A stretch of 64,000 nt of DNA from Acidimicrobiales bacterium (GTDB lineage Bacteria; Actinomycetota; Acidimicrobiia; Acidimicrobiales; SZUA-35). The DNA is taken from positions 9,260 through 73,259 of the forward strand of contig JBBKWJ010000286.1 of assembly GCA_037968895.1 (NCBI GenBank). The letters are read 5' to 3'. Below, one piece after another: positions 3,006-17,162 of this stretch. The notes under the pieces were generated by a model. That model was not told where the DNA came from. It saw only the letters and a list, made by a program, of their open reading frames with translations, and did not search any database. The position numbers and the translations under genes are program-made. The number at the start of each line of letters is the position of its first letter. Positions within the stretch are counted from its first letter, which is position 1.

Positions 3006-3643
3006 GTCAGCAGGGCCTTGAGATCGTCGGCGAGAACCTGAGCCTCGATCGCTGGGGGCCACACGATGCGGAGGTCGCCGTTGGTGTCGATACCCATCAG
3101 GCTCGCCGTGTGGTCCATCTCATACGTGCCGTCTGCTTCGACCTCGCTTGGCTGGAAGAACACGCCGTATTGGCTGGCGACCTGTGTGGTGGCTTCGGGT
3201 GCGCCAGCAACGCCGTAGAAACGCTCATCGAAGAATCGCACATACTCACCCGTCGTCGCGAGCTCGTCGCGTTCCGGATCGATCGACACCATTAAGAGAG
3301 TCACTCGGTCGCCATCGTCGCCGAGCAGATCGAGAGCCTTTGCCACATCGCGCAACGTCGTCGGACATACGTCAGGGCAGTTGGTATACCCGAAATAGAC
3401 GAGCACGATCTTGTCGTCAAAGTCGCCGAAGTTGACAGGTTGGCCAGTATCAAGCAGTAGTCCGTCCATTGCTGGAGCTGGCGTCGACTGCTGAAAGACG
3501 GTGCCGGCGTACAGGTGCGGGCTGAAGAGACTGACCGCGAATCGAGCAACGAGAATCCCGGCAAGGATGACCGCCGCCAGAATCAGAACGAGGAGCCAGC
3601 GTGGACGGCGGTTGGTTGATGATGTGGCCATAGTTGAACTCAC
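3002..3643 (-). CDS. SCO1/SenC family copper chaperone / thiol-disulfide oxidoreductase
   Basis: 213-aa ORF with an N-terminal TM helix (WLLVLILAAVILAGILVA), CPDVCP (CxxxCP) and the downstream His ligand region YEMDHTASL. GTG 3643 forms a GTGA overlap with the upstream stop; ATG 3631 is the alternative start. Confidence 0.9.
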   Translation of the reverse strand: MSSTMATSSTNRRPRWLLVLILAAVILAGILVARFAVSLFSPHLYAGTVFQQSTPAPAMDGLLLDTGQPVNFGDFDDKIVLVYFGYTNCPDVCPTTLRDVAKALDLLGDDGDRVTLLMVSIDPERDELATTGEYVRFFDERFYGVAGAPEATTQVASQYGVFFQPSEVEADGTYEMDHTASLMGIDTNGDLRIVWPPAIEAQVLADDLKALLT

Positions 3644-4308
3644 GGGTAGCAGAGGAATAGGTGGGCAGCTTCATAGGCAACCCCGGCCGCGCCGTCCGAG
3701 TATCGGACCTCATCGACGAGGATCCCCACATGGCTGACGATTTTGTCTTGATCGTTTGCAATCGTTTGATAGCGGTACTCGCCTCGCACAACTCCCCAAC
3801 CGTCAACTAACACGTAGGCCGGGTCGAACTCCACTTCGCCGCTGGCCTCGTCGAACTCGAAGAATCTACCGAAGCCAGCGCCAACGACCGTCTTCAGAGT
3901 TGCCTGGTCGCCGCTAACCCACCGCCAGTTCGTACCGTCGGCTCCCGAGGCGTCTGAGGCCGCCGCGAGTTCCGCCTTAGGCGGCGAATCGAGCGCAATC
4001 GTCACAAGTTGGAACGAGATGTCGTCAAGCTTGACTTCGGTTGGCACCCTGGCTGCGAGGCCGGCCATCGTTGCGTTGATGTCATCGCACCGCTCGTCGC
4101 AATCAGCTGGCATGAAGGTGTACAACGTGAGGGCGCCACGGGCGTCTTCACTTGTGGTTAGCTCACCACTGTCGTCTTGAAGGGCATAGCCGGGCGCCAA
4201 GCCAATGCGGGGCAAGACCTGGATTGGCTCCACAATCACAAACGCCAACGCGGCCACAATCAGCACACCGATCAACGACGCTGTGACCTTCAGCCATAGA
4301 GGGATCAC
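3640..4308 (-). CDS. SCO-like thioredoxin-fold membrane protein with degenerate metal site
   Basis: C-terminal 222 aa of track ORF 3640-5031. It has a TM helix (VTASLIGVLIVAALAFVIV) then SCO-like spacing (ALTLYTFMPADCDERCDD, CxxxC). I saw no DH(T/S) His-ligand motif. The start is set at GTG 4308 because the upstream part of the ORF looks non-coding (see findings). Confidence 0.6.
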   Translation of the reverse strand: MIPLWLKVTASLIGVLIVAALAFVIVEPIQVLPRIGLAPGYALQDDSGELTTSEDARGALTLYTFMPADCDERCDDINATMAGLAARVPTEVKLDDISFQLVTIALDSPPKAELAAASDASGADGTNWRWVSGDQATLKTVVGAGFGRFFEFDEASGEVEFDPAYVLVDGWGVVRGEYRYQTIANDQDKIVSHVGILVDEVRYSDGAAGVAYEAAHLFLCYP

Positions 4309-4332
4309 GAGCCGGTCGCTACCATCGTCGAG

Positions 4333-4752
4333 ATGAAGTGGCTCAAGTGGATCGCCCTCGTCGGCGCCTTTCTCGCGATGTTGTATTACACCGCCCTCCC
4401 CGGTGACCTCGTCACCAATAAGGGAACCGACGGCGAGGGAATCGCCGGTACCTACACTGTCAACGGCGAAGGCCCTACCGGCATCGAGTATTCCGGCACC
4501 GTCGTGATTGTCACCACGGACGACACCGATCTCTACGAGATTCAGTGGATCGTCACCGGCGCTATCGACAAAGGAACCGCTCGCCTCTCGGGCACCAAGC
4601 TCGAGGTCGACTGGGAGTCGGTCGCCACGTCCGGCGACCCCATGGTCGGGACTGGCGATTACACCGTCACCGCTGAGGGCCACATCGTCGGAACCCGCAG
4701 CGTCGCCGGAAATGACGCGCTGAGCACCGAGGAGTTCTTCCCCGAGAGCTGA
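4333..4752 (+). CDS. Small membrane-anchored or secreted beta-rich protein, unknown function
   Basis: 139-aa ORF with strong C/G preference at codon position 3 (hand count about 85 percent). N-terminal hydrophobic anchor MKWLKWIALVGAFLAMLYY. Internal repeat GTYTVNGEG / GDYTVTAEG. It lies on the opposite strand to all of its neighbours. Confidence 0.65.
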   Translation: MKWLKWIALVGAFLAMLYYTALPGDLVTNKGTDGEGIAGTYTVNGEGPTGIEYSGTVVIVTTDDTDLYEIQWIVTGAIDKGTARLSGTKLEVDWESVATSGDPMVGTGDYTVTAEGHIVGTRSVAGNDALSTEEFFPES

Positions 4753-4769
4753 GTCTTTCTCGTTTGCAG

Positions 4770-7016
4770 TCATCCGGTTTCTTCCGTGAGCGAACCGAGA
4801 TACACGACAAGCGCTTCGAGATCTTCGGGCGAAAGTCGCTCTTGATAGATATCGAGCATCTGACCGCTCCGATACCCGTCGACCACGTAGGCATCGGGAG
4901 ACAGGATTGACTGACGAATGTAGTCGGCTGCGCTCAGCCCAGGCAGACGGTCGGCGCCGTTCGTTCCGATACCGGCAAGCGACGGGCCGACTCCGTTCTC
5001 CCCCGCATCGACCGAATGACAGACCTTGCAAGCTCCCCCCGACCGCGAGTCGAAGACGTCTCGTCCCTCCGCCACGCCGGGAGGGGCAGGAATATCGGCT
5101 GCCTCAACGACAAGCCGTCGACCTGAGTCAAGGTTTGGCGTGCCTTGATACAACAGAGTCGGCTCCGTTTCATCGCCACGTTCGTAGAGCAACACTGTGA
5201 GGTCGACCGGTCCGGGAGCCACATCAACATCAATAATTCCAACCGCCCGATCTCCATCGCGGGGCACGCGTTGTCGAGCAATCTCGACATCGTCGGCGGT
5301 CACCACGATGCTGACGTCGGTGCCAGCGACACCAGTCGGCGCTGCTTGCGACTCAAGTTGAGCACCAGGCTCATGGTCGATGATCACCCTGACGCCGGCC
5401 TCGTCTCGTCCAGGCGAAAACGGTGTGCGCGTCGCAGCAGCAACGGCGGCAAGCGACACGATCACCAGGAGCCCAACGTGTACTAGTGCCCTTCTTGAGG
5501 ACGGTTCGGCTACCGCGTCTGGGTGCAGGCCGCGATCGCCAAGCGAAGTTCGCAGTTCTCCAGGGGCAACGAAGTCTTCGGCCGCTACTCCTACCCACTT
5601 TCGGGTGACATGCGGTGCCCTCGTTCCTTCCAGGCGCTCCGCGGCGAGAACATTGCCAATCCCATACGAGCAGTCACCAGGCGGGCAACCAACAACCTGC
5701 ACGCCAGTTGCCCCTCGCTCCATCAAACTACCAACGGCCTGACTATGGAACATCCCAGCGCACGACACGCCAACGAAGACAGTTGCCTCGTCGGCTGCTT
5801 CCTCAGAATTGGTCGCACGAAAATGAGTGAGGTGCCGATCGCAGGCAATCACTACTTGCTTGCCTTTCGGATCGACCTTGTCAACGGCGTCAGAGCCCGG
5901 CAGTGACATCGCCCCGAACGAGCACGACCCGATACATACGCCACAGCCAACGCAGGCGTGCGGGTCGACGATGGCGACAAGCCGTTTGTTCTGCGAATCG
6001 GTCCGTGAGGTCATCTCAAGCGCGGCATACGGACAGTCGATGACGCAGAGATCGCAACCGGTGCAGGCGTCTTCATCGATTTCGACAACCGCAGGATCAG
6101 ATCGGGTGAGAAGCCGAGGTAAAAAGAGCACGCCGATGCCGGCGAGAACCCCGAACACAAGCACGAGCCAAGCTGCACCAGACAACAGCGGCGGCAACAG
6201 GAACATGATGAACGGATCGAGCGGCATATCGGCCACAAACTGAGCGGCGTCTGCTCGCTCCAGTAGATCGGCTGGCAATGCGAGCGCCGCAACGAGCAGC
6301 GCTCCAGCCATCAACGCCATCCAGTGCCGCGGCGGGACCCACCCAAGCCGAGATCGGCGTACATGTCGATACGTGGCGTACCCGATGGCGGCCGTAAGCC
6401 CGAGATGGATGAACCAGATTGCAAGCAGCAGGGTCCATCCAGAGCCAGCGTTAGGACCCATAATCCGGTCGACTGCGAACGTTGCTCCCCACGACGTGTC
6501 GCCGAGCATCGAGATCATGACCTCGTTGAGCGCACCGGCACGTCGATCCCACACGAGCCAGTAGCCAGTGACTCCCGCAAGCCAGACCATCACCAACGCC
6601 GCGACTCCGCTCACCCAACGCCATCGCCGCTTGTGGCCGGTAAATCGCTTGGCCCCGAAAATCCGCCAGGCGTGTACAACGGTGGTCAACACCAGACCTG
6701 CAGACGAGTAGCGATGGATGGTTCGCACCACCGACTGGATCGGGTGGTTCTGCATCTTCAGGACCGAGTTATACGAGCTCTCAAACCCAAACTCGTAGAA
6801 GAGGGTGATGTAGAGGCCCGTTACGGTCACTACCGCAAGCAGGAACACACTTATTGTGCCCGCATGCGGTAGTGGGTTAAGACGATTCGAGCCGGCAATT
6901 CGTCGGATCGGTCGCTCCGCCGCAAGCGAACCGCCCTCGATCGAATTGATTACCCGTTCCAGGCGAAGCGGGCCCGGTTTGGCCCCCTTTTTCTGGTTGC
7001 TCGGGCTATCTACCAC
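4770..7016 (-). CDS. Multidomain fusion: di-haem cytochrome b core + 2x[4Fe-4S] ferredoxin + MvhD/FlpD-like module + TM + beta-rich domain + class I cytochrome c
   Basis: Single open frame. Two bis-His pairs sit 14 residues apart (IHRYSSAGLVLTTVVHAW; FIHLGLTAAIGYATYRHV). Ferredoxin motifs CTGCDLCVIDCP and CVGCGVCIGSCS. MvhD-like VSCAGMFHSQAVGSLMERGATGVQVVGCPPGDCSYGIGN. TM helix LVHVGLLVIVSLAAVAAA. CKVCH is encoded at 5016-5030. The start is taken as GTG 7016, which overlaps the cbaA stop (GTGGTAG); the track start at 7121 would overlap cbaA by 112 nt. Confidence 0.8.
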   Translation of the reverse strand: MVDSPSNQKKGAKPGPLRLERVINSIEGGSLAAERPIRRIAGSNRLNPLPHAGTISVFLLAVVTVTGLYITLFYEFGFESSYNSVLKMQNHPIQSVVRTIHRYSSAGLVLTTVVHAWRIFGAKRFTGHKRRWRWVSGVAALVMVWLAGVTGYWLVWDRRAGALNEVMISMLGDTSWGATFAVDRIMGPNAGSGWTLLLAIWFIHLGLTAAIGYATYRHVRRSRLGWVPPRHWMALMAGALLVAALALPADLLERADAAQFVADMPLDPFIMFLLPPLLSGAAWLVLVFGVLAGIGVLFLPRLLTRSDPAVVEIDEDACTGCDLCVIDCPYAALEMTSRTDSQNKRLVAIVDPHACVGCGVCIGSCSFGAMSLPGSDAVDKVDPKGKQVVIACDRHLTHFRATNSEEAADEATVFVGVSCAGMFHSQAVGSLMERGATGVQVVGCPPGDCSYGIGNVLAAERLEGTRAPHVTRKWVGVAAEDFVAPGELRTSLGDRGLHPDAVAEPSSRRALVHVGLLVIVSLAAVAAATRTPFSPGRDEAGVRVIIDHEPGAQLESQAAPTGVAGTDVSIVVTADDVEIARQRVPRDGDRAVGIIDVDVAPGPVDLTVLLYERGDETEPTLLYQGTPNLDSGRRLVVEAADIPAPPGVAEGRDVFDSRSGGACKVCHSVDAGENGVGPSLAGIGTNGADRLPGLSAADYIRQSILSPDAYVVDGYRSGQMLDIYQERLSPEDLEALVVYLGSLTEETG

Positions 7017-8719
7017 GGGGTGAAATCGGTCCCCGGAGAGTTGAGATTCATGTTCCAGATCTGGTCGACCAACTGGGGACCATAGGCAATCACCAGCAGC
7101 AGGGCGGCTGCGATGAGCCATGGTTTGAAGCGGTCAAGCCACAATGGAGTGAGCTGGGGCGACCTCATCGACTCTGCGATCGGAACCGTTGGCACCAATG
7201 CCGGATCGATCTTTGGTCCAAGTGCGGTACGAAGCATGATGTAGCCGAAGGTGTAGACCGAGTAGAAGAGAATCGTGCCGCCAATCGAGACCCGCAACAG
7301 GTGACCACTCCACTCCTCAGGAACGTATGGAGCTGAACCGAGTGGAGTCCGGCGTGGTGCTCCAAGGAGTCCGACAACGTGCATCGCGTTAGAGAAGATG
7401 ATCATGCCGACGAACCAAGTCCACGCCTGCACGAGCGCCAATTTTGGCTTGTAGAGCGCTTTGCCGGTGATGTAGGGAACCATCCAGTACGAGATTCCCA
7501 TGAACGACAGGGTGACTGCGGTTGCCACTGTGAGGTGGAAGTGGCCAGGCACCCACGCCGTGTTGTGGATCACAAGGTTGAGGCTGTATGACGCGTTGGT
7601 CAGGCCGCCAATGCCACCAAAGACAAATAGGAGCGCGGCGAGCAACTGGGCGGTGACCGACGGATCTTTCCATGGCAATGCCCGAATCCAGCCGACCAGA
7701 CCGGTGCCCCCGTTGCGGCGAGCGCCGTATTCAAGCGAAGCGATGACGGTGAAGGCAGTGATCATCGATGGGAAGAAGACCGAGTAGGTAAGCATGGCGT
7801 GGATGAACTTCCACGTCTGCGGCACACCAGGATCGGTGAACTGGTGGTGGAACCCGACTGGCACCGAGACAATCAGGAACATCCAGAACGAAAGTCGAGC
7901 CAGCGAATCGCTGAAGAGTTTTCCACCAACCTGCTTCGGGAGCATCGCATACCACGAGGTGTACGCCGGCAGCAGCCAGAAGTACACCAACGGGTGGCCG
8001 GTCCACCAGAAATAAGTGCGAGCCAGCTCAGGGTCGGTGCCATCAATGAGCCCGACCGACCATGGCAGCAGCATCGTGAGAATTTCGACCGCAATCCCAA
8101 GAGTTGCGATCTGCCACATTGCCATGTTGATGATTGGCGCTAGCGCGACGAGCGGCGAACGAACGCCGGGGTTGTCTTTGCGCCACGCATGGAGCGTGAA
8201 GTAGAAGCCGTAGCCCTCGATCCAACTGCCGACGACAACGAGGGTCAGGCCGAGGTAAAAGGCCCAGCTCGCCTTGAGTGGCGGATAGAAGGTGTAGAGG
8301 ACCGTCGCCTTGTTGAACAGAATCGGAATGGCAGCCATCACCAAGCCGACGATCATCGTGTAGAAGCCGAACTTGTTTAGCTTTGGTTTCGCAAGTGGGC
8401 GACCAAGCGCCTTGATCGTCGTCAGGGTGGTGAAACCAGTGATGAAGATGGTCGTGAAGACAAGGGCGTTCAGCACGCCATGAAGCGTGAGTCCCTGGTA
8501 ATACGACTTGATGACCGGTTCAAGGTATGGGTAGAGGTCAAGGCCCCCGAACTCGAGAGACTGCAGCGGGCCGAAGAAGCTACCAACCATCAGTGCGGCG
8601 AACGCCACGATGAGGTGCTGGCCGACGAACTTCTTTTCATCTGGGGTGAGGTCACGGCCACTGTCTATGCGACGGGTACCGACAGAGCCTCCCTCGATTG
8701 GTTCCTCAGTCAACGTCAT
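7010..8719 (-). CDS. cbaA: Haem-copper oxidase subunit I, B-family (ba3-type)
   Basis: 569-aa ORF. Long stretches match my memory of Thermus ba3 subunit I (YYQGLTLHGVLNA, ATVLYTFYPPLKA.WAFYLG, FWWTGHPLVYFWLLPAY, VGFHHQF.DPG, HNTAWVPGHFHL). ATGA overlap with the cbaB stop at 8716-8719. Confidence 0.93.
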   Translation of the reverse strand: MTLTEEPIEGGSVGTRRIDSGRDLTPDEKKFVGQHLIVAFAALMVGSFFGPLQSLEFGGLDLYPYLEPVIKSYYQGLTLHGVLNALVFTTIFITGFTTLTTIKALGRPLAKPKLNKFGFYTMIVGLVMAAIPILFNKATVLYTFYPPLKASWAFYLGLTLVVVGSWIEGYGFYFTLHAWRKDNPGVRSPLVALAPIINMAMWQIATLGIAVEILTMLLPWSVGLIDGTDPELARTYFWWTGHPLVYFWLLPAYTSWYAMLPKQVGGKLFSDSLARLSFWMFLIVSVPVGFHHQFTDPGVPQTWKFIHAMLTYSVFFPSMITAFTVIASLEYGARRNGGTGLVGWIRALPWKDPSVTAQLLAALLFVFGGIGGLTNASYSLNLVIHNTAWVPGHFHLTVATAVTLSFMGISYWMVPYITGKALYKPKLALVQAWTWFVGMIIFSNAMHVVGLLGAPRRTPLGSAPYVPEEWSGHLLRVSIGGTILFYSVYTFGYIMLRTALGPKIDPALVPTVPIAESMRSPQLTPLWLDRFKPWLIAAALLLVIAYGPQLVDQIWNMNLNSPGTDFTPW

Positions 8720-9300
8720 TCGTCAGCTCCATCGTCTGTCTTGTCGTCGTCGGTTGGCGCGGCGGCTTCGTCGGAACTTTGGGGCACGACATTGACCGTG
8801 CCGAACATGCTTGCGTGTCCTGAACCGCAGTATTCGTGGCAGATATAGGGGAACTCGCCAACCGTGTCGAAGGTGTAGTCAAGCTTTGACACCTGGCCAG
8901 GTATGACCATGAAGTTGACGTTGGTGTCGGTGATTTTGAAGCCGTGCTGGAGATCGACGCTTGTGACGTAGATCGTCACCTTTGAGCCGACAGGAATCTC
9001 GAGCTCACGCGGGCTGAATGTCCAGGCCGAGGCAACGACATAGGCCTCGTACACACCATCGGATATCTCCCTGAGGCCGGGAGTAGCCCAGGGCTCCGAG
9101 TCAGTGACGTTTCGAGGATCAACCTCGCTCTCGGCCCCATTGACTTGGATACCCATGGCGAAGCCAGCCACGACAACGACGGCGAAGAAACCAACGAGGA
9201 GGGCAACTGAAAGCCGCATCCAGTTGCGCTCATAAGGATCGATCCCCATGGTGAGACGCTTGTCGGTCGCAAACTCTTCAGTCTCGTTGGCTCCCGTCAC
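8716..9300 (-). CDS. cbaB: ba3-type cytochrome c oxidase subunit II (CuA)
   Basis: One N-terminal TM helix and a cupredoxin domain with the CuA motif CHEYCGSGHASM. The start is set at GTG 9300, forming a GTGA overlap with the stop of the small upstream ORF. The track start TTG 9345 lies inside that ORF. Confidence 0.88.
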   Translation of the reverse strand: MTGANETEEFATDKRLTMGIDPYERNWMRLSVALLVGFFAVVVVAGFAMGIQVNGAESEVDPRNVTDSEPWATPGLREISDGVYEAYVVASAWTFSPRELEIPVGSKVTIYVTSVDLQHGFKITDTNVNFMVIPGQVSKLDYTFDTVGEFPYICHEYCGSGHASMFGTVNVVPQSSDEAAAPTDDDKTDDGADE

Positions 9301-9452
9301 GTGGTGACGCCTCTGCTGAGCAAGATCGCATAGACCGAGAACCAAAGAAGGATGAGTATCACGACGAAGATTGCAAGCAAGAAGAGCGTGCCCGTTGGCT
9401 TGAAATGCTCTTCGTTTGATGCTTCGTCAAGGTCAGCGTCTGGACTGCTCAC
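9297..9452 (-). CDS. cbaD: ba3 oxidase subunit IIa-like single-TM peptide (51 aa, absent from ORF track)
   Basis: Hand translation: VSSPDADLDEASNEEHFKPTGTLFLLAIFVVILILLWFSVYAILLSRGVTT*. The KP.G.L...W..VYA....RG pattern matches Thermus subunit IIa as I recall it. An SD-like GGGGAGAA lies 7 nt upstream of GTG 9452. Its stop overlaps the cbaB start. Confidence 0.7.
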   Translation of the reverse strand: MSSPDADLDEASNEEHFKPTGTLFLLAIFVVILILLWFSVYAILLSRGVTT

Positions 9453-9593: not shown

Positions 9594-10406
9594 ATGAACC
9601 GAGCCCATCGGGTTCTGGCAATACGGAGAGCGCTCATCCTTCTTCTTGGTTTGGCGCTCGTTTTCGTTGTTGCCACACCGAGCTCAGCCCAGACAGACGA
9701 GCCAGCCAGCGCAGCGGAGGGCGAAGAAGCTGCCGATCCCGAAGACGAAGCTCAGAATCAAAAGCTAAGAGATGGCGAAGAGGTCTACGCCGCCGTGTGC
9801 CAGTCGTGCCACCAGCCGGGCGGCGTTGGCCTCAGCGGTCAATTCCCCGCCCTAAAGGGAAATCCGAATGCGACTGATGCTGCCTATGTTGAAGATGTCG
9901 TCACCAACGGCAAGTCCGGCGAGATAACTGTCAACGGCGAAACCTTCAATGGCGTGATGCCGCCGTTCTCGACACTTTCAGACGACGACATCGCCAGCGT
10001 CGTTGCCTATGTCACTAACGATCTCGTGGCGCCCGCAGCAGTAGGAGCCGTCGTCGGCCCTACCGGTCCGGTCGCTGGCACCGAACTCCCTGGGTTCGCC
10101 AACACCACTTATTACATCGCATTCGCGATGGCGGCCTTTGTCGCACTCCTTGTTCTTGGCCCGCGCCTTGCTTCGCAGAACGACCGCCTCGACACCCCCT
10201 GGTTCGATGTCGGCCTCAAGACCACAACCATCGTCCTCGGGTTTGTTATCGGAACCGTCTTCATCCCTAACTGGGCGATGCAGTCCAGCACCGTTAGCAA
10301 ACTCGACCGACCGATCCAGGATCTCATCGGCTCTGGCCTGTGGATCGGGGGCCTTGGCATCGGCCTCTGGACCCTCTGGTACACCCACCGAGAGTCGAGG
10401 ATCTAA
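9594..10406 (+). CDS. Membrane-tethered class I cytochrome c (signal peptide, CQSCH, three C-terminal TM helices)
   Basis: GAGGAG at 9583-9588 sits 5 nt before ATG 9594. Signal-like LILLLGLALVFVVATPSSAQT. Haem motif CQSCH with a distal GVMPPF. The C-terminal third is hydrophobic (three predicted helices). Confidence 0.85.
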   Translation: MNRAHRVLAIRRALILLLGLALVFVVATPSSAQTDEPASAAEGEEAADPEDEAQNQKLRDGEEVYAAVCQSCHQPGGVGLSGQFPALKGNPNATDAAYVEDVVTNGKSGEITVNGETFNGVMPPFSTLSDDDIASVVAYVTNDLVAPAAVGAVVGPTGPVAGTELPGFANTTYYIAFAMAAFVALLVLGPRLASQNDRLDTPWFDVGLKTTTIVLGFVIGTVFIPNWAMQSSTVSKLDRPIQDLIGSGLWIGGLGIGLWTLWYTHRESRI

Positions 10407-12220
10407 TGGCAGACAACGCCGGGCTGGAGTTCTACGACCAAAACATCCCGTGCCTCGCGGCGTGCCCCGTGCACACAAACGCTGGCATGTACGTTGCGGC
10501 CATTGCTGACGGCGACGACGAGCAGGCCTATCTCACCGCCCGAATGCCGAATCCTTTCGCCTCCGTGTGTGGCCGGGTGTGCGCCGCTCCATGCGAAGAC
10601 GCGTGCCGGCGGGGCGAGATCGATCGCCCTATCGCAATCAGGGCGCTAAAGCGTTTCGTCACCGAGCAGTTTGGCCCTGAGTCAGGCAATGTCGAAGAAG
10701 GCAGCGCTGTTTGGAACAAAGTGGTCGCCCCGCCAGCTCACGAGCGCCCGGAAAGCATTGGCATTGTCGGTGGCGGCCCCGCCGGTATGGCGTGCGCGCA
10801 CGACCTCCGCCGCTGGGGTTACCAAGTCACGGTGTATGAGGCAACCGACAAGCTTGGCGGCGCTATGTGGCTCGGCATTCCCGAGTATCGCCTCGATCGC
10901 GGAGTTCTTGCTGGCGACATCGACGCCATAGTCAACCTTGGTGTCGAGGTGCAGTACAACACCAGACTCGGCCGGGACGTCACGCTCGACGAGCTACGCG
11001 AACGCCACGACGCAGTCTTCCTCGGTATCGGCGCAACCCTCGGCCGTGGCCTCGATGTCGAAGGCCACGACGCCGATGGCGTGTTTAAGGCAATTGAGTT
11101 CCTGATCAACATGAACCGGGGCTTTGAAGTCAATATTGGCGAGCGGGTCATTGTGATTGGTGGCGGCGACGTCGCCATGGACGCAGCCCGAACCGCACTT
11201 CGGGCCGACGACTATTCCGACAAGCGTGACGAGGATGGCCCACACCCTGCCGCTCTCGATGAGCGTTCGCCGATGACAGAAGCATTCGACGTTGCTCGCA
11301 CCGCAGCTCGGTCAGGAGCACGGCACGTCACGATCATGTCGCTCGAAGATCGCGAAGAGATGCCAGCCCACGACTTCGAGGTTGAGGAAGCCGAACACGA
11401 AGGCATTGACTTCCTCCCCCGCCGTGGTCCGAAGTCGATCAAGGTGAAAGACGGCAAGGTCGTTGGTCTTGAAACCATTGGCGTCCGCTCCGTCTTCGAC
11501 GCTGACGGCAAGTTCAGCCCCGACTTCGACACCGACGATGTGCAGGTCACCGAGGCCGACACCATCATTCTCGCGATCGGTCAGGCGATCGATCTCGATT
11601 CGCTCGGCAATGACGGACCCGAGATCAGTCCTCGCCGCACCATCCAGATCGACTGGGTAACCGGCGAGACCTCGATGCCAGGCATCTGGTCAGGTGGCGA
11701 TGCGGCAAAAGGGCCTCGCACTCTGATCGACGCCATCGCAGACGGTCGACGTTCGGCCGAGTCAATCCACCGCTCCTTTGGTGGCGAAGTTGAAGCCGAC
11801 AAGCCAGGCAAGATGGTGCAACTCCAGCAGTTCCACCGCCTCGATGACACCTACGACCGAGTCAATCGCCTCGACGTGCCAACACTCGATACTGGCCGCC
11901 GCATGGGCTTGGCCGAGGTTGAGCTTGGCTTCACTCCCGAGCAGGCACGATGCGAGGCAAATCGCTGCCTTCGCTGCTTTGCCAACATTCTGCTCGAGAC
12001 CGAAAAGTGCGTGTTGTGCGCCCTCTGTGCCGACGTCTGCCCCGTAGACGTCATTTCGCTGGTCCCTTCAGAAGAGATTGATCCTGAGGTTCATGGCGGC
12101 ACGGCCCTGCTCCTCGACGAGACCGCCTGCATCCGTTGCGGACTCTGTATTGAACGATGCCCACCTGATGCGCTGTCGATGGGAATGTGGACAGGAGTTG
12201 GTGTTCCGAAATGGACGTAG
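10406..12220 (+). CDS. GltD-like NAD(P)H-dependent flavo-iron-sulfur oxidoreductase with C-terminal 2x[4Fe-4S] ferredoxin domain
   Basis: ATG 10406 overlaps the upstream TAA (TAATG). Cys-rich N-terminus typical of the glutamate synthase small subunit (CLAACPVHTN...CGRVCAAPCEDAC). Dinucleotide folds IVGGGPAGMACA and VIGGGDVAMDAA. C-terminal CVLCALCADVCP and CIRCGLCIERCP. No TM helix. Confidence 0.85.
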   Translation: MADNAGLEFYDQNIPCLAACPVHTNAGMYVAAIADGDDEQAYLTARMPNPFASVCGRVCAAPCEDACRRGEIDRPIAIRALKRFVTEQFGPESGNVEEGSAVWNKVVAPPAHERPESIGIVGGGPAGMACAHDLRRWGYQVTVYEATDKLGGAMWLGIPEYRLDRGVLAGDIDAIVNLGVEVQYNTRLGRDVTLDELRERHDAVFLGIGATLGRGLDVEGHDADGVFKAIEFLINMNRGFEVNIGERVIVIGGGDVAMDAARTALRADDYSDKRDEDGPHPAALDERSPMTEAFDVARTAARSGARHVTIMSLEDREEMPAHDFEVEEAEHEGIDFLPRRGPKSIKVKDGKVVGLETIGVRSVFDADGKFSPDFDTDDVQVTEADTIILAIGQAIDLDSLGNDGPEISPRRTIQIDWVTGETSMPGIWSGGDAAKGPRTLIDAIADGRRSAESIHRSFGGEVEADKPGKMVQLQQFHRLDDTYDRVNRLDVPTLDTGRRMGLAEVELGFTPEQARCEANRCLRCFANILLETEKCVLCALCADVCPVDVISLVPSEEIDPEVHGGTALLLDETACIRCGLCIERCPPDALSMGMWTGVGVPKWT

Positions 12221-12966
12221 TCAATAAGGAAAGCGGAGACCTGTTTGATCGGCTGCGCGAAACTCGCGTTGGCCGTTCGATCTGGCGAACTCCGCGAAAG
12301 ATCACGCCACGCGATCGAGCGGCTGGCCACTGGTCGAGCTTCGCCCTCCACATCTACCCAGTCAAGGTTCGCAAAGCCGAGCTCGGATTCAAGTATTCCT
12401 GGTACTTGGGCGTCATCTCGACCGTGCTGTTTGCCTCGCTCGTCTTCTCGGGCATCGTCCTGATGTTCTTCTACGTCCCGTCACCCGGTTCGGCATACAC
12501 CAACATCCAGACACTGCAGACCGAGGTCGCATTCGGCCAATACCTTCGCAACGTCCACCGCTGGTCAGCCCATCTCATGGTGCTGGCGGTGGCGATGCAC
12601 ATGGCCAAGGTCTTCTATCGAGGTGCCTACAAGGCGCCTCGCGAGTTCAACTGGGTTATCGGTGTTGTGCTCCTCGTCATGACGCTGTTTATGTCGTTCA
12701 CTGGCTACCTCCTCCCCTGGGATCAGCTCGCCTACTGGGCCGTCACCGTCGGTACCGAAATGGCAGCGTATGTGCCATTTGCTGGAGCGAAGACCCAAAC
12801 CATGCTGCTCGGCGGACCAGCCGTCGGGTCAGCAACCCTGCTCCGTTTCTATGTTCTGCATGTCGCCGTGCTTCCACTCATGATGGTGATGGCCCTCACC
12901 ATTCACCTGTGGCGCTGGCGCAAGGACTCAATGCTCGATCTCGACCGTGGAGAGCCCAATGACTGA
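12211..12966 (+). CDS. Cytochrome b6-like (split cytochrome b, N-terminal di-haem half)
   Basis: ATG 12211 overlaps the upstream gene by 10 nt. Helix-B His pair in HRWSAHLMVLAVAMH (14 apart). Helix-D pair in LHVAVLPLMMVMALTIH (15 apart, the b6-type spacing). Also contains PREFNW and GYLLPWDQ. Confidence 0.9.
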   Translation: MDVVNKESGDLFDRLRETRVGRSIWRTPRKITPRDRAAGHWSSFALHIYPVKVRKAELGFKYSWYLGVISTVLFASLVFSGIVLMFFYVPSPGSAYTNIQTLQTEVAFGQYLRNVHRWSAHLMVLAVAMHMAKVFYRGAYKAPREFNWVIGVVLLVMTLFMSFTGYLLPWDQLAYWAVTVGTEMAAYVPFAGAKTQTMLLGGPAVGSATLLRFYVLHVAVLPLMMVMALTIHLWRWRKDSMLDLDRGEPND

Positions 12967-13540
12967 GAAGACCGAGTCAAAGGACACCGAGACCAAGGTG
13001 ACTCTTGGGCTAAAGCCAGCCACGACGAGTAGCCCGACCGTGCTCGAAGGGCGTCGAGTCCTCGGCATGGTGCCGGGCAAGCCAGTCGCTGGTGTGCGCA
13101 AAGATCCAGCGGAGGATGACAACGTCCTCGTCTATCCCCACCTGCTCGTCCGCCACGCCGTAGCAGCGCTCGTCACGCTCCTGACCGTGATGGTCATCGC
13201 GGTTCTGTTCGATGCGCCACTTCGAGCGATCGCCAACCCGACAGTCACTCCAAACCCAGAGAAGGCGCCCTGGTACTTCGCAGCTCTGCAGGAACTACTT
13301 GCGCACTTCCATCCACTCGTTGCCGGCGTGCTCATTCCCGGCGCAATCATCATTGGCTTGGTCGCGCTTCCTTACATCGACCGCAGCCTGTACATACGGG
13401 CGTCACACCGTCGAGTTGCGGTATCGACCTTCACAACCTTCATGGTGATCTGGATCATCCTGACGATTATCGGCTTCGCCTTCCGCGGTCCCAACTGGGG
13501 CTGGGTATGGCCTTGGCAAGAATGGCACGGTGAACTATGA
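12947..13540 (+). CDS. Cytochrome b C-terminal half / b6f subunit IV-like
   Basis: 197-aa ORF starting at GTG 12947 or ATG 12959, both overlapping the upstream stop at 12964-12966. It carries a Qo-loop-like PEKAPWYFAALQELL followed by three hydrophobic helices. Confidence 0.8.
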   Translation: MESPMTEKTESKDTETKVTLGLKPATTSSPTVLEGRRVLGMVPGKPVAGVRKDPAEDDNVLVYPHLLVRHAVAALVTLLTVMVIAVLFDAPLRAIANPTVTPNPEKAPWYFAALQELLAHFHPLVAGVLIPGAIIIGLVALPYIDRSLYIRASHRRVAVSTFTTFMVIWIILTIIGFAFRGPNWGWVWPWQEWHGEL

Positions 13541-14043
13541 GTGAGACTCTCAAGCGACGCCAGTTCGTATCCCGTATCTGGATGGCCGGTGCTGGCCTCA
13601 TTGGTGCCGCTGGTGCGTGGACCGGATGGGAACTCCTTCAACCACTCGCAACCACCGGATTCGGTGGCAAGGTCCGAGCGCTACTGCCTGATGCTGTCCC
13701 CGAGGGTGGTGTCATTGAGGTCCCGGCCGCTCGTGCGTACCTCGCACGAATCAACGGTGAGATCGTTGCGATCTCAGAGAAGTGCACTCATCTTGGTTGC
13801 CGCGTCCCTTACTGCGACTCATCGGGCCAGTTCGAGTGCCCATGCCACGGGTCAAACTTCAATCGGGCCGGCGACTATCGATCGGGACCAGCACCACGAG
13901 GGCTCGACTACTACCCGACCGAGGTCGGCGATGACGGCATGATCTACATCGACACCGGAGTCAAGATCGACGGAGCTGCGCCCGGTGGCGAGCAGATCGA
14001 CGAACCACAAACCGGGCCCATGTGCGCCGGAGGTGGACACTGA
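13537..14043 (+). CDS. Rieske [2Fe-2S] protein with twin-arginine leader
   Basis: ATGA overlap at 13537-13540. Tat-like KRRQFVSRIWMAGAGLIGAAGAW. Rieske boxes CTHLGC and CPCHGS. Confidence 0.92.
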   Translation: MSETLKRRQFVSRIWMAGAGLIGAAGAWTGWELLQPLATTGFGGKVRALLPDAVPEGGVIEVPAARAYLARINGEIVAISEKCTHLGCRVPYCDSSGQFECPCHGSNFNRAGDYRSGPAPRGLDYYPTEVGDDGMIYIDTGVKIDGAAPGGEQIDEPQTGPMCAGGGH

Positions 14044-14540
14044 TGCAATACGGAGGAGAAGACGAGGAACTCGAAGCCTCGACAACCAAAGTGATGACTA
14101 TCGGCGCGGTCCTACTCGTGTCCTTCGCTCTCATCTTTCCGCTCTACCGCTTCTTCGAGCCAAGCAACCGTGACGCGTCTCGTGAGACGCACTTGCAATC
14201 GCTAGCGGCCGAAGGCGAGAACACCTGGGGCTTCAACTGCGCCTCATGTCACGGGCTTTCTGGCCAAGGCGGCACGGCACCGGCGCTGAACTCGAAAGAG
14301 TTCTTGCAAGCAGCCACCGATCTACAGATCGAGCAGTTCGTGTCAGTCGGATTGCCAGGCACCCAGATGTCAGCCTTCTCGCAAGACTTTGCCGGGCCGC
14401 TCACCAGCGCCCAGATCAAAGCGGTCACGACCTATATTCGGTCGTGGGAGCCAGACGCTCCGTCGAACCCCGATTGGCGCCTCGGCGCTCCCGTTGAAGC
14501 CGCCGCAGGCGACACGACCGGGACAACAGTCGAGGAATAG
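14043..14540 (+). CDS. TM-anchored class I cytochrome c
   Basis: ATG 14043 overlaps the Rieske TGA (TGATG). N-terminal anchor VMTIGAVLLVSFALIFPLY. Haem motif CASCH, and GTQMSAF as a probable Met ligand region. Confidence 0.85.
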   Translation: MQYGGEDEELEASTTKVMTIGAVLLVSFALIFPLYRFFEPSNRDASRETHLQSLAAEGENTWGFNCASCHGLSGQGGTAPALNSKEFLQAATDLQIEQFVSVGLPGTQMSAFSQDFAGPLTSAQIKAVTTYIRSWEPDAPSNPDWRLGAPVEAAAGDTTGTTVEE

Positions 14541-14571: not shown

Positions 14572-15792
14572 GTGTCAGAGACCACCCGATTCGGGTTCCG
14601 CATCAAGCCAGACGAGCGAGCAGACGCCGGCTGGCAGATTGATGCCAGCCGCTTCGAACGCTTTCCCCAACGCGACGACGTCTTCAATCGTTCTTGGTGG
14701 GACGAGCGAATCCGCTCGACGACAACCGAACGCTTCTTTCAGTCATACCGAGAGCCGCTACTCGAATGGCGCAAGGCGAGAGGTTTCCGTCGCAAAGACT
14801 ACGCGTTGCGAAACGCGGCCTGGCATGGCGCCGACATCTTCGCCGAACTGAAAGAAGCTGAAGATAGACGCGAGGGGTTCCTTGATCCTCTAAGCGTGTT
14901 GCGTGACGCCTCAGACGAGAAGATGCCGGTCGATGACCCGGTGCAAGAAGCGATTGAGCTTAAGCAGGTAGCCAAGACGCTCGGCGCGGACCTTGTTGGC
15001 ATCACCTCGGCCGACGACCGCTGGCTTTATGCCAGTCGCTACTCACGAGCGGTTGATGGCCCAAAGCCAAACCCGATGGACGAAAGCCTGACGCAAGTGA
15101 TCGTCGTTGGCCAGGCGATGGACCGCTCCATGATCGCCACCGCACCTTCGGCTCTCGCAGGAGCCGCGACCGGGCTTGGCTACTCCCAAGATGTAATCGT
15201 GCTGCTTGCCATCTCGCAGTACATCAGGAACCTCGGCTACCAGGCGGTGCCAACGCTAAACGACACGGCCCTGGCTATTCCGTACGCCATCAAGGCCGGG
15301 CTCGGCGAATACGGCCGTCACGGACTTGTGATCACACCCGAGCACGGGTCAAACGTTCGATTCGGCAAGATCTTCACTGACCTTCCGCTGGCGATCGACT
15401 CGCCGATTCGTTTTGGTGTCGAGGAGATGTGCGGCCTCTGCAATGCCTGCGCCGAAGCCTGCCCGTCGAGCGCAATTCCCCACGACGAGCCGTCCGACCA
15501 CCGGCACAACCAGTCGAACATCAAGGGGATCACCAAGTGGACCGTCGATGGTGAAGCCTGCTTCGGCTATTGGGCCAAGATCAACAGCGACTGCTCGGTC
15601 TGCATCAGGGTCTGTCCTTACACTCGCGACTATTCGACGCTCGAGAGCAAGCTATGGAGCAGACTCGCACAAGGGCGAGGACGACGGCTTGCGCTGTGGT
15701 GGGACCGCCGCTCTGAACGAGGCGCTCGGGTGAAGAGTTCCGAATGGTGGGGTACGACCACTCCGGTGGAACTGACCGTCAAGCCGAGCTAG
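14572..15792 (+). CDS. Reductive dehalogenase (RdhA) family homologue, no Tat signal
   Basis: The track ORF (14389-15792) overlaps the cytochrome c gene. The first in-frame start after its stop is GTG 14572. RdhA-like features: FERFPQRDDVF.RSWWD, GADLVGITSADDRWLYAS, and Fe-S motifs CGLCNACAEACP (Cx2Cx2Cx3CP) and CFGYWAKINSDCSVCIRVCP (Cx10Cx2Cx3CP). Confidence 0.72.
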   Translation: MSETTRFGFRIKPDERADAGWQIDASRFERFPQRDDVFNRSWWDERIRSTTTERFFQSYREPLLEWRKARGFRRKDYALRNAAWHGADIFAELKEAEDRREGFLDPLSVLRDASDEKMPVDDPVQEAIELKQVAKTLGADLVGITSADDRWLYASRYSRAVDGPKPNPMDESLTQVIVVGQAMDRSMIATAPSALAGAATGLGYSQDVIVLLAISQYIRNLGYQAVPTLNDTALAIPYAIKAGLGEYGRHGLVITPEHGSNVRFGKIFTDLPLAIDSPIRFGVEEMCGLCNACAEACPSSAIPHDEPSDHRHNQSNIKGITKWTVDGEACFGYWAKINSDCSVCIRVCPYTRDYSTLESKLWSRLAQGRGRRLALWWDRRSERGARVKSSEWWGTTTPVELTVKPS

Positions 15793-15885: not shown

Positions 15886-16893
15886 TCAGTTGTTGCTTGA
15901 GGGATGCCGTCGCCAGTGACACGGAGCGCACCGCAGTTGCAGTTCGTCAACAACCGTTCGCCGGCTCGTCTCAAACTCAGGCACATGATCAAACGTCAGC
16001 AACTCGCGACGTCCGCAATCTACACACACCCGATCGCGTTCCTTGACCACTCGTTTCTGCCGCGTCGTGGGATGACGATGCTTGCCAGACACGTTGATTG
16101 GCTTGCTCTCCGCGTCGTGGATCATGGCTCGAATAGTGGCTGTGTCAGCGATCCGGCCAATAACGCTGTCGGGGATCGGTGTGCCGTCATCCATCGTCGT
16201 TCCGTCACCCCGCACATGCACCACAACCTCGGTGTTGATGGTCCCGGCACCCTCGTTCAGTAGTTCTTCCAAGGCGTCTGCGTGTTGTTGGGCCAGAGTC
16301 GGCCAGGTTCCGTCGGCCTGGCGGCGTGGCTTGGAGCGCATCACCAAGCTGGTGATGATCGCAATGAACATCGAAGCCAACAACGGCGGTAACCGCATAC
16401 TGATACTGACCATGCCGTCAGGGTCGTTACGCCATTTGATTGACCGCCGTTGCCGGTGAAATTTCTCTAACGCATCAGGGTCAGACGACTTCTGTAGCCA
16501 TGCGGCGATCGCACGACCCAAATCAGCTGCCGAAACCGATTTGGCGAGGGCAACTAGTTCGGCTTCGTTCTCGACTGTGGCGACTCTGGTCAAGGTCCGG
16601 ATCTTCGAATACGACAATTCACTCGCCTCAAACGCTGCCGCGGACGCGTGCAAAACCTGTAAACAACGCCCGATCCGGATCCATTCACGAGTTGTGCACG
16701 TTTCAACGTCAGCGATATCAGATAGCCATGAGGCAGCTGTTGGCGCACCTTCAAGTACCCATTCACCAGAGTCAGCGAACTGTGCGGCGAGGATCACTAA
16801 CTCGTATTGGCTTCTGGCCCACACACCAGCGGTTTCGCGTAGTTTGGTCGCCAACGGCGACCGTGTTGATGGGGTTGAGAGTGTTGTGGTCAT
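15886..16893 (-). CDS. DUF222 domain + HNH endonuclease protein (13E12-repeat-like family)
   Basis: C-terminal HNH region CVDCGRRELLTFDHVPEF...LQLRCAPCHWRRH with a DUF222-type body. ATG 16893 is preceded by GAAAGGCGGAA. The track start at 17004 would translate a motif that is non-coding at the second locus. Confidence 0.8.
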   Translation of the reverse strand: MTTTLSTPSTRSPLATKLRETAGVWARSQYELVILAAQFADSGEWVLEGAPTAASWLSDIADVETCTTREWIRIGRCLQVLHASAAAFEASELSYSKIRTLTRVATVENEAELVALAKSVSAADLGRAIAAWLQKSSDPDALEKFHRQRRSIKWRNDPDGMVSISMRLPPLLASMFIAIITSLVMRSKPRRQADGTWPTLAQQHADALEELLNEGAGTINTEVVVHVRGDGTTMDDGTPIPDSVIGRIADTATIRAMIHDAESKPINVSGKHRHPTTRQKRVVKERDRVCVDCGRRELLTFDHVPEFETSRRTVVDELQLRCAPCHWRRHPSSNN

Positions 16894-16952
16894 TGAAGGT
16901 TCCGCCTTTCGTTTCGAGTGGCTGCCGATTGTGTGCCGCTCGAGCTCCGCTC

Positions 16953-16978
16953 GAGTAAGCCTAATCAGGGGGTGTGAC
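16953..16978 (-). repeat. Conserved 5' motif shared by both DUF222 loci (copy A)
   Basis: The minus strand reads GTCACACCCCCTGATTAGGCTTACTC. Copy B at 43165-43191 reads GTCACACCCCCTAAGTAGTGTTTACTC. They share an identical 12-mer plus TAG and TTACTC. Confidence 0.7.
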
Positions 16979-17162
16979 ACTCGAAGAACAGCCCTTTTCG
17001 TCACTACGAGTGGCTGTCACGCGTCCGCAGCCACGCCTCGACCACCGAACGTGAGATATCCAGGAGGCATCGGTGAGCGTCTCGTCCGTGCGCCATCGGT
17101 GACGGCGAAGTAACGCACGCTAACCAGGATCAATAGCGACCCACGCTCCTAGTGAAGCCGAA

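Follow-up and report, generated by a model that had tools for sequence, protein, structure and literature searches.

We analysed a 64,000-nucleotide (nt) stretch of DNA (assembly GCA_037968895.1, contig JBBKWJ010000286.1, positions 9,260–73,259 of the forward strand). The whole stretch is called the window here, and all positions are counted from its start. Six genes on its plus strand (9594–14540) encode a Rieske/cytochrome b (cyt b) complex together with a large iron-sulfur (Fe-S) flavoprotein, and the role of this flavoprotein is our main subject. The first-pass annotation had described six tightly overlapping genes, and this was confirmed: all six are open reading frames (ORFs) with Pfam matches far above chance, and they overlap, in order, by 1, 10, 8, 4, and 1 nt (TAATG, ATG..TAG, ATG..TGA, ATGA, and TGATG). 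GGAG-like sequences stand upstream of most of the ATG starts, and the six genes are translationally coupled. G+C content is uniform over the window, and the opposite-strand and out-of-frame ORFs of the region were discounted as by-products of high G+C. Scans for promoter and terminator consensus sequences gave counts within shuffle expectation, with nothing in the divergent intergenic region.

The first gene, cytC1 (9594–10406), encodes a signal peptide, a monohaem class I cytochrome c (cyt c) domain (CQSCH; PF13442 3e-15, PF00034), and a C-terminal membrane module. It is followed by the flavoprotein gene (10406–12220), whose product is cytoplasmic, 604 amino acids (aa) long, and matches Fer4_20 (1e-16), Pyr_redox_2 (1e-25), and Fer4 (twice). 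The cyt b6-like protein (12211–12966; PF00033 Cytochrome_B 4e-44) has four transmembrane (TM) helices and two b haems; its length of 251 aa is that called for the gene of a close relative, L081. Next come the subunit IV-like protein (12959–13540; 193 aa, three TM helices, Qo motif APWY; PF00032 Cytochrom_B_C 1e-10), the Rieske [2Fe-2S] protein exported by twin-arginine translocation (Tat) (13537–14043; CTHLGC and CPCHGSNF; PF00355 2e-12), and cytC2 (14043–14540), an N-terminally anchored monohaem cyt c (CASCH; PF13442/PF00034 1e-7). The motifs quoted earlier were all located (CQSCH, IVGGGPAGMACA, VIGGGDVAMDAA, the KRRQFV Tat leader, CTHLGC/CPCHGS, CASCH, and PEKAPWYF). The flavoprotein length is as first given, and so are the b6-type His spacings in cyt b6 (14 residues in helix B and 15 in helix D) and the lack of an N-terminal Cys for haem ci, the CxGG position being occupied by Tyr. 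A hydropathy scan predicted three TM helices for subunit IV and a single anchor for cytC2; the flavoprotein had no TM segment. Behind the signal peptide of cytC1, two of the three C-terminal TM segments described earlier are clear, while the third is Gly-rich and weaker.

Related loci, denoted here by L numbers, were collected with a scan that was seeded with cyt b6 alone, used one genome per species, and was blind to the flavoprotein; the window proteins were then mapped onto the loci. There were at least 591 cyt b6 relatives. The best 80 loci were kept, and 76 of them could be assessed for the flavoprotein. A flavoprotein homologue adjoins the Rieske/cyt b genes in 70 of the 76. These flavoprotein-linked loci cover at least nine phyla, with hosts in Actinomycetota, Gemmatimonadota, Chloroflexota, Acidobacteriota, Verrucomicrobiota, Myxococcota, Zixibacteria, Binatia, and Ignavibacteria. 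L035 has a C-terminal remnant only, and the gene is absent from L028, L071, L074, L080, and probably L062. Two gene orders were found. In order A, seen in Acidimicrobiia, Gemmatimonadota, Myxococcota, and Chloroflexota, the flavoprotein gene is followed by cyt b6, subunit IV (sometimes fused), Rieske, and cyt c. In order B, seen in Acidobacteriota, Verrucomicrobiota, Zixibacteria, Binatia, Ignavibacteria, and Anaeromyxobacter, it is followed by Rieske, cyt b6, and subunit IV. The order cyt c–flavoprotein–cyt b6 stressed in the first-pass annotation is not conserved in the survey outside part of the Acidimicrobiia.

In pairwise comparisons, flavoprotein divergence follows that of cyt b6 (r = 0.93; 0.92 outside Acidimicrobiia; Mantel 0/2000), and the correlation is as tight as that between Rieske and cyt b6 (r = 0.90–0.94). 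Since the flavoprotein gene adjoins the core genes, diverges with them, overlaps its neighbours at stop and start codons, and is kept in the operon even when split into halves (L086, described below), there is strong genetic evidence that the flavoprotein belongs to the Rieske/cyt b complex as a subunit. The earlier claim of a true subunit is thus upheld on genetic grounds, by the adjacency across two gene orders, the co-divergence, and full-length homology to the flavoprotein of an anammox cluster.

More than one Rieske/cyt b operon may occur in a genome. L087 (561–11856) has two tandem Rieske/cyt b clusters, each followed by a multihaem cytochrome of about 690 aa; one contains a flavoprotein and a split cyt b, and the other a long cyt b of 433 aa and no flavoprotein. 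L023 and L034 are two contigs of the metagenome-assembled genome CAYLVM01, and each carries a complete flavoprotein-type operon. Paralogous copies of the operon can therefore coexist in one Acidimicrobiia genome, or else this bin is mixed.

By its sequence, the operon belongs to the APWY clade, or subfamily G, of Rieske/cyt b complexes and is of a known kind rather than a new system. Subfamily G is the name given by Dibrova et al. (2013, 2017) to this clade, which is phylogenetically patchy. Kao & Hunte (2014) place delta-Proteobacteria, Chloroflexi, Nitrospirales, Planctomycetes, and Actinobacteria in the APWY clade, name the split cyt b of Ilumatobacter coccineum as a member, and predict a Rieske protein of mid+ to high potential; the clade had no characterised member then. 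Large NAD(P)-binding Fe-S oxidoreductases stand alongside the cyt b of the clade "in many other cases" (Kao & Hunte 2014; Dibrova 2017), and the CxGG motif for haem c_n does not define the clade as a whole. The novelty suggested in the first-pass annotation was therefore overstated: the clade, its occurrence in Ilumatobacter, and the link to an NAD(P) oxidoreductase had all been published. The accessible parts of these papers contain no Acidimicrobiia operon, permutation, nucleotide-motif change, small TM subunit, or link to a ba3 oxidase or Nar. In the literature searched we found no report of the NfnB permutation with its 16 Cys, the replacement of YRR by LE, the missing haem c_n Cys, the invariant His, or the pairing with ba3 or Nar, all of which are described below.

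As anammox reference we used cluster L085, of the Kuste4569–72 type, which was retrieved with a 94-residue fragment of a Kuenenia crystal sequence; the relatives matched by this fragment reached at most 83% identity. Because L085 was used instead of the Kuenenia proteins, residue numbers such as His43 were obtained by counting in a close relative. L085 encodes a Rieske protein, a 585-aa flavoprotein, cyt b, subunit IV, a multihaem cyt c, and an HAO-like protein. The window proteins are 36% (flavoprotein; 604 columns, E 3e-109), 42% (cyt b), 42% (subunit IV), and 44% (Rieske) identical to their L085 counterparts, and the flavoprotein counts as a homologue of Kuste4570 and Kustd1483. A look-up of the window flavoprotein itself gave no record. 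The likeness to anammox Rieske/cyt b complexes with a GltD-like subunit, which had been drawn earlier, is thus well founded.

Judged by alignment, the flavoprotein is circularly permuted relative to NfnB/GltD: residues 489–526 (...EANRCLRC) align to the NfnB N-terminus (residues 8–46), and its own N-terminus starts at about NfnB residue 50. The best PDB matches were 9bov, 9n5u, 8oh5_C, and NfnB (5jca_L), with HMMER E values of 1e-60 to 1e-91, and the permuted order, in which RCLxC comes after the flavin domains, is common to 9bov, 9n5u, 8oh5_C, and the flavoprotein. The Cys-rich N-terminus described earlier as GltD-type is GltD-like, but the circular permutation leaves just one half of that domain at this end of the protein. 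Sixteen Cys residues (16, 20, 55, 59, 63, 67, 521, 524, 535, 538, 541, 545, 575, 578, 581, and 585) recur without exception in 64 homologues and also in the anammox protein. They suffice for four [4Fe-4S] clusters, which we therefore predict, and one of the four is apparently built from both ends of the chain. In L086 (4350–6422) two genes encode the flavoprotein: one product, of 444 aa, is the flavin part, and the other, of 196 aa, carries RCLEC and two ferredoxin clusters. The split falls exactly at the boundary of the circular permutation and both halves are kept in the operon; one Fe-S cluster would therefore be common to two polypeptides.

The nucleotide-binding domain differs from that of its relatives in the NADPH motif. 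β-strand 2 of the second Rossmann fold is followed by YRR(T/S) in the anammox protein and in those relatives of solved structure that bind NADPH. In place of YRR, each of the 64 family members has (S/C/A)-(L/P)-E, and "MSLED" of the window protein aligns to "VYRRT". By the classical rule, an Arg at this place binds the 2'-phosphate of NADPH and an acidic residue marks NAD. As the YRR is replaced by an LE-type motif, the nucleotide is more likely to be NADH than NADPH. The "NAD(P)H" of the first-pass annotation thus stands as to the nucleotide domain, which is kept, and would have to be narrowed, probably to NADH, as to the nucleotide. The NAD domain is also interrupted by a family-specific insertion of 25–60 aa with a duplicated helix, while GGG-x-x-A-x-D-x-x-R and the downstream E-(E)-M-P-A are invariant in the family and in the anammox homologue.

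In cyt b6, the haem b ligands H124/H138 and H225/H240 (numbered from the GTG start) are invariant in 75 sequences, and an Arg-Lys pair after the helix-D haem ligand, which corresponds to the Qn site in b6f, is also invariant. The Cys of CxGG occurs in none of the 70 flavoprotein-linked loci and is present in L074, L080, and L085; by alignment, the window complex lacks the haem c_n Cys. The anammox cyt b has an insert in the C-D loop, as do L074 and L080, both of which are flavoprotein-less; the window protein is without it. On the n-side, His47 (counted from the ATG; H55 in GTG numbering) lies in an L-H-x-x-P motif and is invariant in the 75 sequences. It aligns with residue 43 (counted from MKVIPEF) of the L085 cyt b, which equals His43 of the Kuste4571-type cyt b. 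In a published AlphaFold3 model, and in that model only, His43 of Kuste4571 is the proposed ligand of an extra haem b between the monomers. KAPWYF is the form of the Qo motif in subunit IV of the window and of 77 of the 80 loci; L069 and L071 have AAWY, and L012 ends at a contig edge. The context of the motif, NP-x-KAPWYF-x-x-LQE, is conserved over the 80. The PEKAPWYF string noticed earlier is present, but alignment reads its Qo motif as APWY, the clade-specific variant already known, and not as an interrupted PEWY.

The Rieske protein of the window has as its top PDB matches the Kuenenia Rieske proteins 9rk4 (3e-18) and 9rk3 (6e-18), ahead of PetC of b6f; these two belong to the Kuenenia complexes that carry an NAD(P) oxidoreductase. 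An S-x-F (Ser-Phe) pair is dominant in the family and is found in the window protein (CPCHGSNF). The same pair occurs in the Kustd1480 Rieske protein, which was measured at +335 mV. As for the APWY clade at large, a mid-to-high potential is predicted for the window protein. Downstream, cytC2 is conserved 3' of the Rieske gene in all order A loci.

The first gene had been taken for a cytochrome c. It does contain a cyt c domain, but it is not simply a cytochrome, as that domain is fused to a conserved small membrane subunit (residues ~177–272). This module is found in 32 Actinomycetota loci, alone (78–176 aa) or fused to one or two cyt c domains, and in these loci its end coincides with the start of the flavoprotein. 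It is retained in the flavoprotein-less L028. Possible counterparts are similar small ORFs with two TM helices in L039 and in two loci from Gemmatimonadota, L040 and L043. Upstream of the flavoprotein gene, L001 has a decayed out-of-frame remnant of the module (5651–6133; ...NLIGSGFWIGG...), and L081 probably has a remnant too (9605–9904). Since the closest relatives of the window operon have no intact module upstream of the flavoprotein, it must be dispensable or replaced in some lineages.

An oxidase operon on the minus strand diverges from the six-gene operon. The first-pass annotation had placed the genes in an actinobacterial genome next to an O2 reductase, which agrees with the Acidimicrobiia, Ilumatobacter or Microthrixaceae names of the flavoprotein relatives and with the type of oxidase found. 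Subunit I (7010–8719; PF00115 5e-95) is a B-family (ba3-type) haem-copper oxidase, and in the PDB it comes closest to subunit I of Thermus ba3 (E 1e-152 to 3e-157). Subunit II with CuA (8716–9345; PF00116, TIGR02866) is listed as an ORF of 209 aa. Upstream of it lies a 51-aa ORF with a single TM helix (9297–9452), which we take to resemble subunit IIa of Thermus ba3; the gene at this position in L089 matches PF08113 (CoxIIa). Because this ORF sits upstream and has a CoxIIa orthologue in L089, subunit II probably starts at an internal ATG near 9249. Besides the window and L089, at least nine other loci have a ba3 oxidase adjacent to the operon.

The oxidase operon also encodes a 783-aa fusion protein (Fus783; 4770–7121), whose parts were assigned by Pfam and a TM scan. 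It contains, in order, a dihaem cyt b domain (N-terminal type, ~6 TM helices), a cytoplasmic 2x[4Fe-4S] domain, an MvhD/FlpD-like domain, one TM helix, a periplasmic domain, and a C-terminal cyt c (CKVCH). Homologues stand beside this type of operon in L003, L004, L007, L011, L025, L056, L086, and L089. The domain order points to a wire for electrons across the membrane that links Fe-S centres in the cytoplasm with a cyt c in the periplasm. Fus783 probably belongs to "subfamily H" of Dibrova. Between Fus783 and SCO1, which is encoded in the same operon, lies a gene for a 377-aa protein with no Pfam match (3640–4773, minus strand). In L089 a 397-aa protein, also without a Pfam match, occupies the same place, and the 377-aa protein probably represents a conserved, unnamed component of this operon.

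The oxidase operon is flanked on the plus strand by genes for a LuxR-type response regulator and a PAS-GAF-HisKA_3 histidine kinase (56–2558). Their architecture is DosR/DosS-like, and oxygen or redox control of the respiratory island by this pair is possible. About 30 nt past the cytC2 stop, with no terminator-like site between, begins a plus-strand gene of the reductive-dehalogenase family (~14572–15792; TIGR02486, 170 bits against a cutoff of 160) that also resembles QueG. Given the short gap without such a site, it may be co-transcribed; no related locus has this gene beside the operon. Directly after the respiratory region there is a minus-strand gene for a DUF222 protein with an HNH-like C-terminus (the actinobacterial "13E12 repeat" type; 15886–17004), which may mark a mobile or variable junction.

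In two Acidimicrobiia loci the orthologous operon adjoins a NarGHJI-type set led by a cyt c (L081, 2083–9354, minus strand; L090, 14053–21797, plus strand). The leading cyt c has 272–306 aa and in L081 is a dihaem protein with one TM helix; L090 also encodes major facilitator superfamily transporters. A cyt c-linked Nar or Nxr-like enzyme might be an alternative electron sink. The idea, taken from L081, that the 272-aa cytC1 travels with the terminal reductase was rejected, as the dihaem, single-TM protein of L081 has the cyt c domain alone in common with cytC1.

The reading that we favour, with a probability of roughly 45%, is that the operon encodes a menaquinol-oxidising complex that bifurcates electrons at Qo to cyt c and, through a docked flavoprotein, to NAD+. 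It draws on analogy with the anammox complexes. The flavoprotein would dock on the cytoplasmic face of the cyt b6/subunit IV core, and menaquinol would be oxidised at the APWY Qo site. One electron would move up in potential to the Rieske cluster, then to the membrane-bound monohaem cyt c proteins and on to the ba3 oxidase (or, in some relatives, to a Nar-type reductase). The other would go from haem bP to bN, possibly to an extra haem b held between the monomers by His47, and then through four [4Fe-4S] clusters and FAD to NAD+. Bifurcation at Qo would thereby make NADH from quinol-level electrons, instead of recycling the second electron into the Qi site. The analysis shows the components, their homology with the anammox complexes, conserved ligands for every cofactor, and close genetic coupling; docking, electron direction, NADH over NADPH, and the extra haem are what we infer here. 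A path from bN through an extra haem and four Fe-S clusters to FAD has been published for the anammox complexes from AlphaFold3 models.

Acidimicrobiia use menaquinone. A high-potential Rieske protein in a menaquinone organism argues for a very low-potential bP, as has been reasoned for Kuenenia, and this mismatch between quinone and Rieske protein is seen across the whole APWY clade. A more far-reaching claim would be that a widespread complex III variant, in mostly aerobic phyla, uses Qo-site bifurcation to make NADH straight from menaquinol, through bP, bN, a third haem b between the monomers, and a four-cluster wire, pulled by a dedicated ba3 or a cyt c-linked Nar. Such a process would amount to reverse electron transport to NADH that needs no complex I. 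We consider this full claim rather doubtful. Such a complex may work with the neighbouring cyt b-FeS-MvhD-cyt c fusion as a second transmembrane wire.

Several points weigh against bifurcation to NAD+. Heterotrophs are normally not short of NADH, and the nearby DosS/DosR-like pair hints at hypoxic use with NADH in excess. At full membrane potential, a rough energy balance comes out at about zero or slightly on the unfavourable side; being this near to equilibrium, the reaction may be reversible. The change from YRR to LE points to NADH, the usual catabolic donor, and would suit electron input at least equally well. Arg511 of Kuste4570, which lies near the modelled extra haem, is not conserved and is Leu or Gly in the family. 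An identical docking contact through this residue thus finds no support. The invariant His47 equivalent is also present in the flavoprotein-less L028, L071, L074, L080, and L088. It is therefore not specific to flavoprotein docking, and we rejected it as a marker of flavoprotein-linked operons. Finally, biochemistry in the clade is confined to the anammox members, and the function there is itself a proposal.

The strongest alternative reverses the flow. The flavoprotein would oxidise NADH and pass single electrons via its four Fe-S clusters to bN or to an n-side quinone site, and the complex would be a built-in non-pumping NADH:menaquinone, or in net terms NADH:cyt c, oxidoreductase similar to NDH-2. 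We regard this as possible, though rather less than an even bet. The first-pass annotation had named both bifurcation and a route from NAD(P)H to cyt c, and the results are compatible with either direction. The YRR of NfnB, StnC, and the anammox subunit is replaced in all 64 members, which suits NADH as donor, and the invariant Arg-Lys pair stands where b6f has its Qn site. The position beside ba3 (window, L089) or a cyt c-linked Nar (L081, L090) and near a DosS/DosR-like pair would fit a hypoxic branch that reoxidises NADH. FNR on b6f is a published precedent, and an analogous route from FNR/ferredoxin to haem c_n has been proposed for cyclic flow. However, NADH input leaves the clade-wide pairing of menaquinone with a mid/high-potential Rieske protein unexplained. 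It would also waste about 250 mV per electron, as Hauser et al. argued for Kuenenia, and a four-cluster wire with a possible extra haem is elaborate for an NDH-2-like task.

Far less probable is that the flavoprotein is co-transcribed and no subunit, acting as a soluble NAD(P)H:ferredoxin-type enzyme or as a partner of the Fe-S/MvhD domains of Fus783. Among close relatives of the membrane core, several are without it (L028, L071, L074, L080, L083, L088, and Geobacter ExtOPQ), and the recurring Fus783-like neighbours would offer another cytoplasmic Fe-S docking site; many flavoprotein loci, however, have no Fus783 within 8 kb. The flavoprotein gene, whose ends overlap its neighbours at stop and start codons, is always either the first member of the Rieske/cyt b set or internal to it; its product co-diverges with cyt b6 as a true subunit does, and co-migration with the complex has been reported for the anammox homologue. 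Slightly less probable again is a partner other than a pyridine nucleotide, for example a disulfide/polysulfide or ferredoxin as for some GltD-like enzymes: the insertion with its duplicated helix, the loss of the NADPH motif, and the varied partners of GltD-like modules in NCBIfam would allow it, but both nucleotide-domain motifs are invariant in the family and the anammox homologue, and where an acidic residue stands instead of the Arg pair, the classical reading is NAD binding and not lost binding.

That a Rieske/cyt b complex can pass its low-potential electron to NAD(P)+ has been a proposal since 2011–2013 and has been approached in anammox bacteria only, which are slow-growing enrichment cultures with no known genetics. 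The same four-subunit core is now seen in Acidimicrobiia beside an ordinary ba3 oxidase and in many mostly aerobic phyla. The operon is a variant of a known but biochemically little-explored kind of complex, and its value is practical. Ilumatobacter-labelled relatives of the flavoprotein exist, the genus is cultured, and an isolate carries the split cyt b of the clade according to Kao & Hunte (2014); the bifurcation hypothesis is therefore open to standard biochemistry. The missing haem c_n, the NADH-type motif, the permuted flavoprotein, and the small TM subunit offer experimental handles. If bifurcation to NADH is true, complex III would have a second major mode of operation, and quinol-level donors would have a route to NADH that is independent of the proton-motive force. 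If NADH is instead the donor, the complex would parallel, in respiration, the debated FNR-b6f route.

The operon shares features with several known systems. Like b6f and the b6c complex of Firmicutes, it has a split b6/subunit IV, b6-type His spacing, and a b6f-type Rieske protein. In contrast to b6f, it lacks haem c_n (Cys35) and cytochrome f and has APWY where b6f has PEWY/PDWY. Pfam found no PetA-like gene in the operon and a class I cyt c instead. With these defining features missing and NCBIfam scores of 182 against a cutoff of 325 for b6 and 25 against 127 for subunit IV, assignment as b6f (PetABCD) was rejected. FNR bound to the n-side of b6f is a functional precedent in the literature, whereas the window flavoprotein is a far larger Fe-S enzyme, unrelated to FNR, whose gene lies in the operon itself. 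The actinobacterial QcrCAB complex (long QcrB, dihaem QcrC, three-TM QcrA) was also rejected, with scores of 104 against 500 (NF050120), 37 and 29 against 200 (NF050122), and 37 against 275 (NF050121).

The closest curated NCBIfam models are ExtP and ExtQ of Geobacter sulfurreducens (extHIJKLMNOPQS), which share the cyt b clade. The Ext cluster encodes a Rieske protein (ExtO), a cyt b (ExtP), a membrane protein (ExtQ), multihaem cytochromes, and a porin, and no flavoprotein. ExtOPQ was rejected for the window, as ExtP reached 263 bits against a cutoff of 290 and ExtQ 64 against 150, and the operon is without multihaem cytochromes. The flavoprotein shares the FAD and nucleotide domains and the two-cluster Fer4_20 domain with the NfnB/StnC-type proteins (5jca, 4ylf, 8oh5, 9bov, 9n5u) and GltD. 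It differs from the NfnB type in its C-terminal 2x[4Fe-4S] ferredoxin domain, in LE for YRR, and in the family-specific insertion, and it has no NfnA, GltB, or molybdopterin partner. It was not accepted as NfnAB or the small subunit of glutamate synthase, since YRR is missing, no NfnA/GltB-like gene lies in or beside the operon, and the NCBIfam models of the GltD/Nfn type all score below their cutoffs.

The Kuenenia complexes (Kuste4569–4574 and Kustd1480–1485; R/b-3 and R/b-2) differ from that of the window in their CxGG Cys for haem c_n and C-D loop insert, their five TM helices in subunit IV (three in the window, plus the separate small TM module), and their gene order. They have hexa/octahaem cyt c and HAO-like proteins where the window has two monohaem cyt c, nitrogen-cycle enzymes where it has a neighbouring ba3 oxidase, and YRR where its flavoprotein has LE and the insertion. 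In the anammox complexes all subunits, including the flavoprotein, are reported to co-migrate, and the published Rieske potentials are +303 and +335 mV. With them the window operon shares a split cyt b, APWY in subunit IV, the Ser-Phe/Tyr pair of the Rieske protein, the equivalent of His43, and, inside the operon, a permuted NfnB-like flavoprotein with four predicted clusters.

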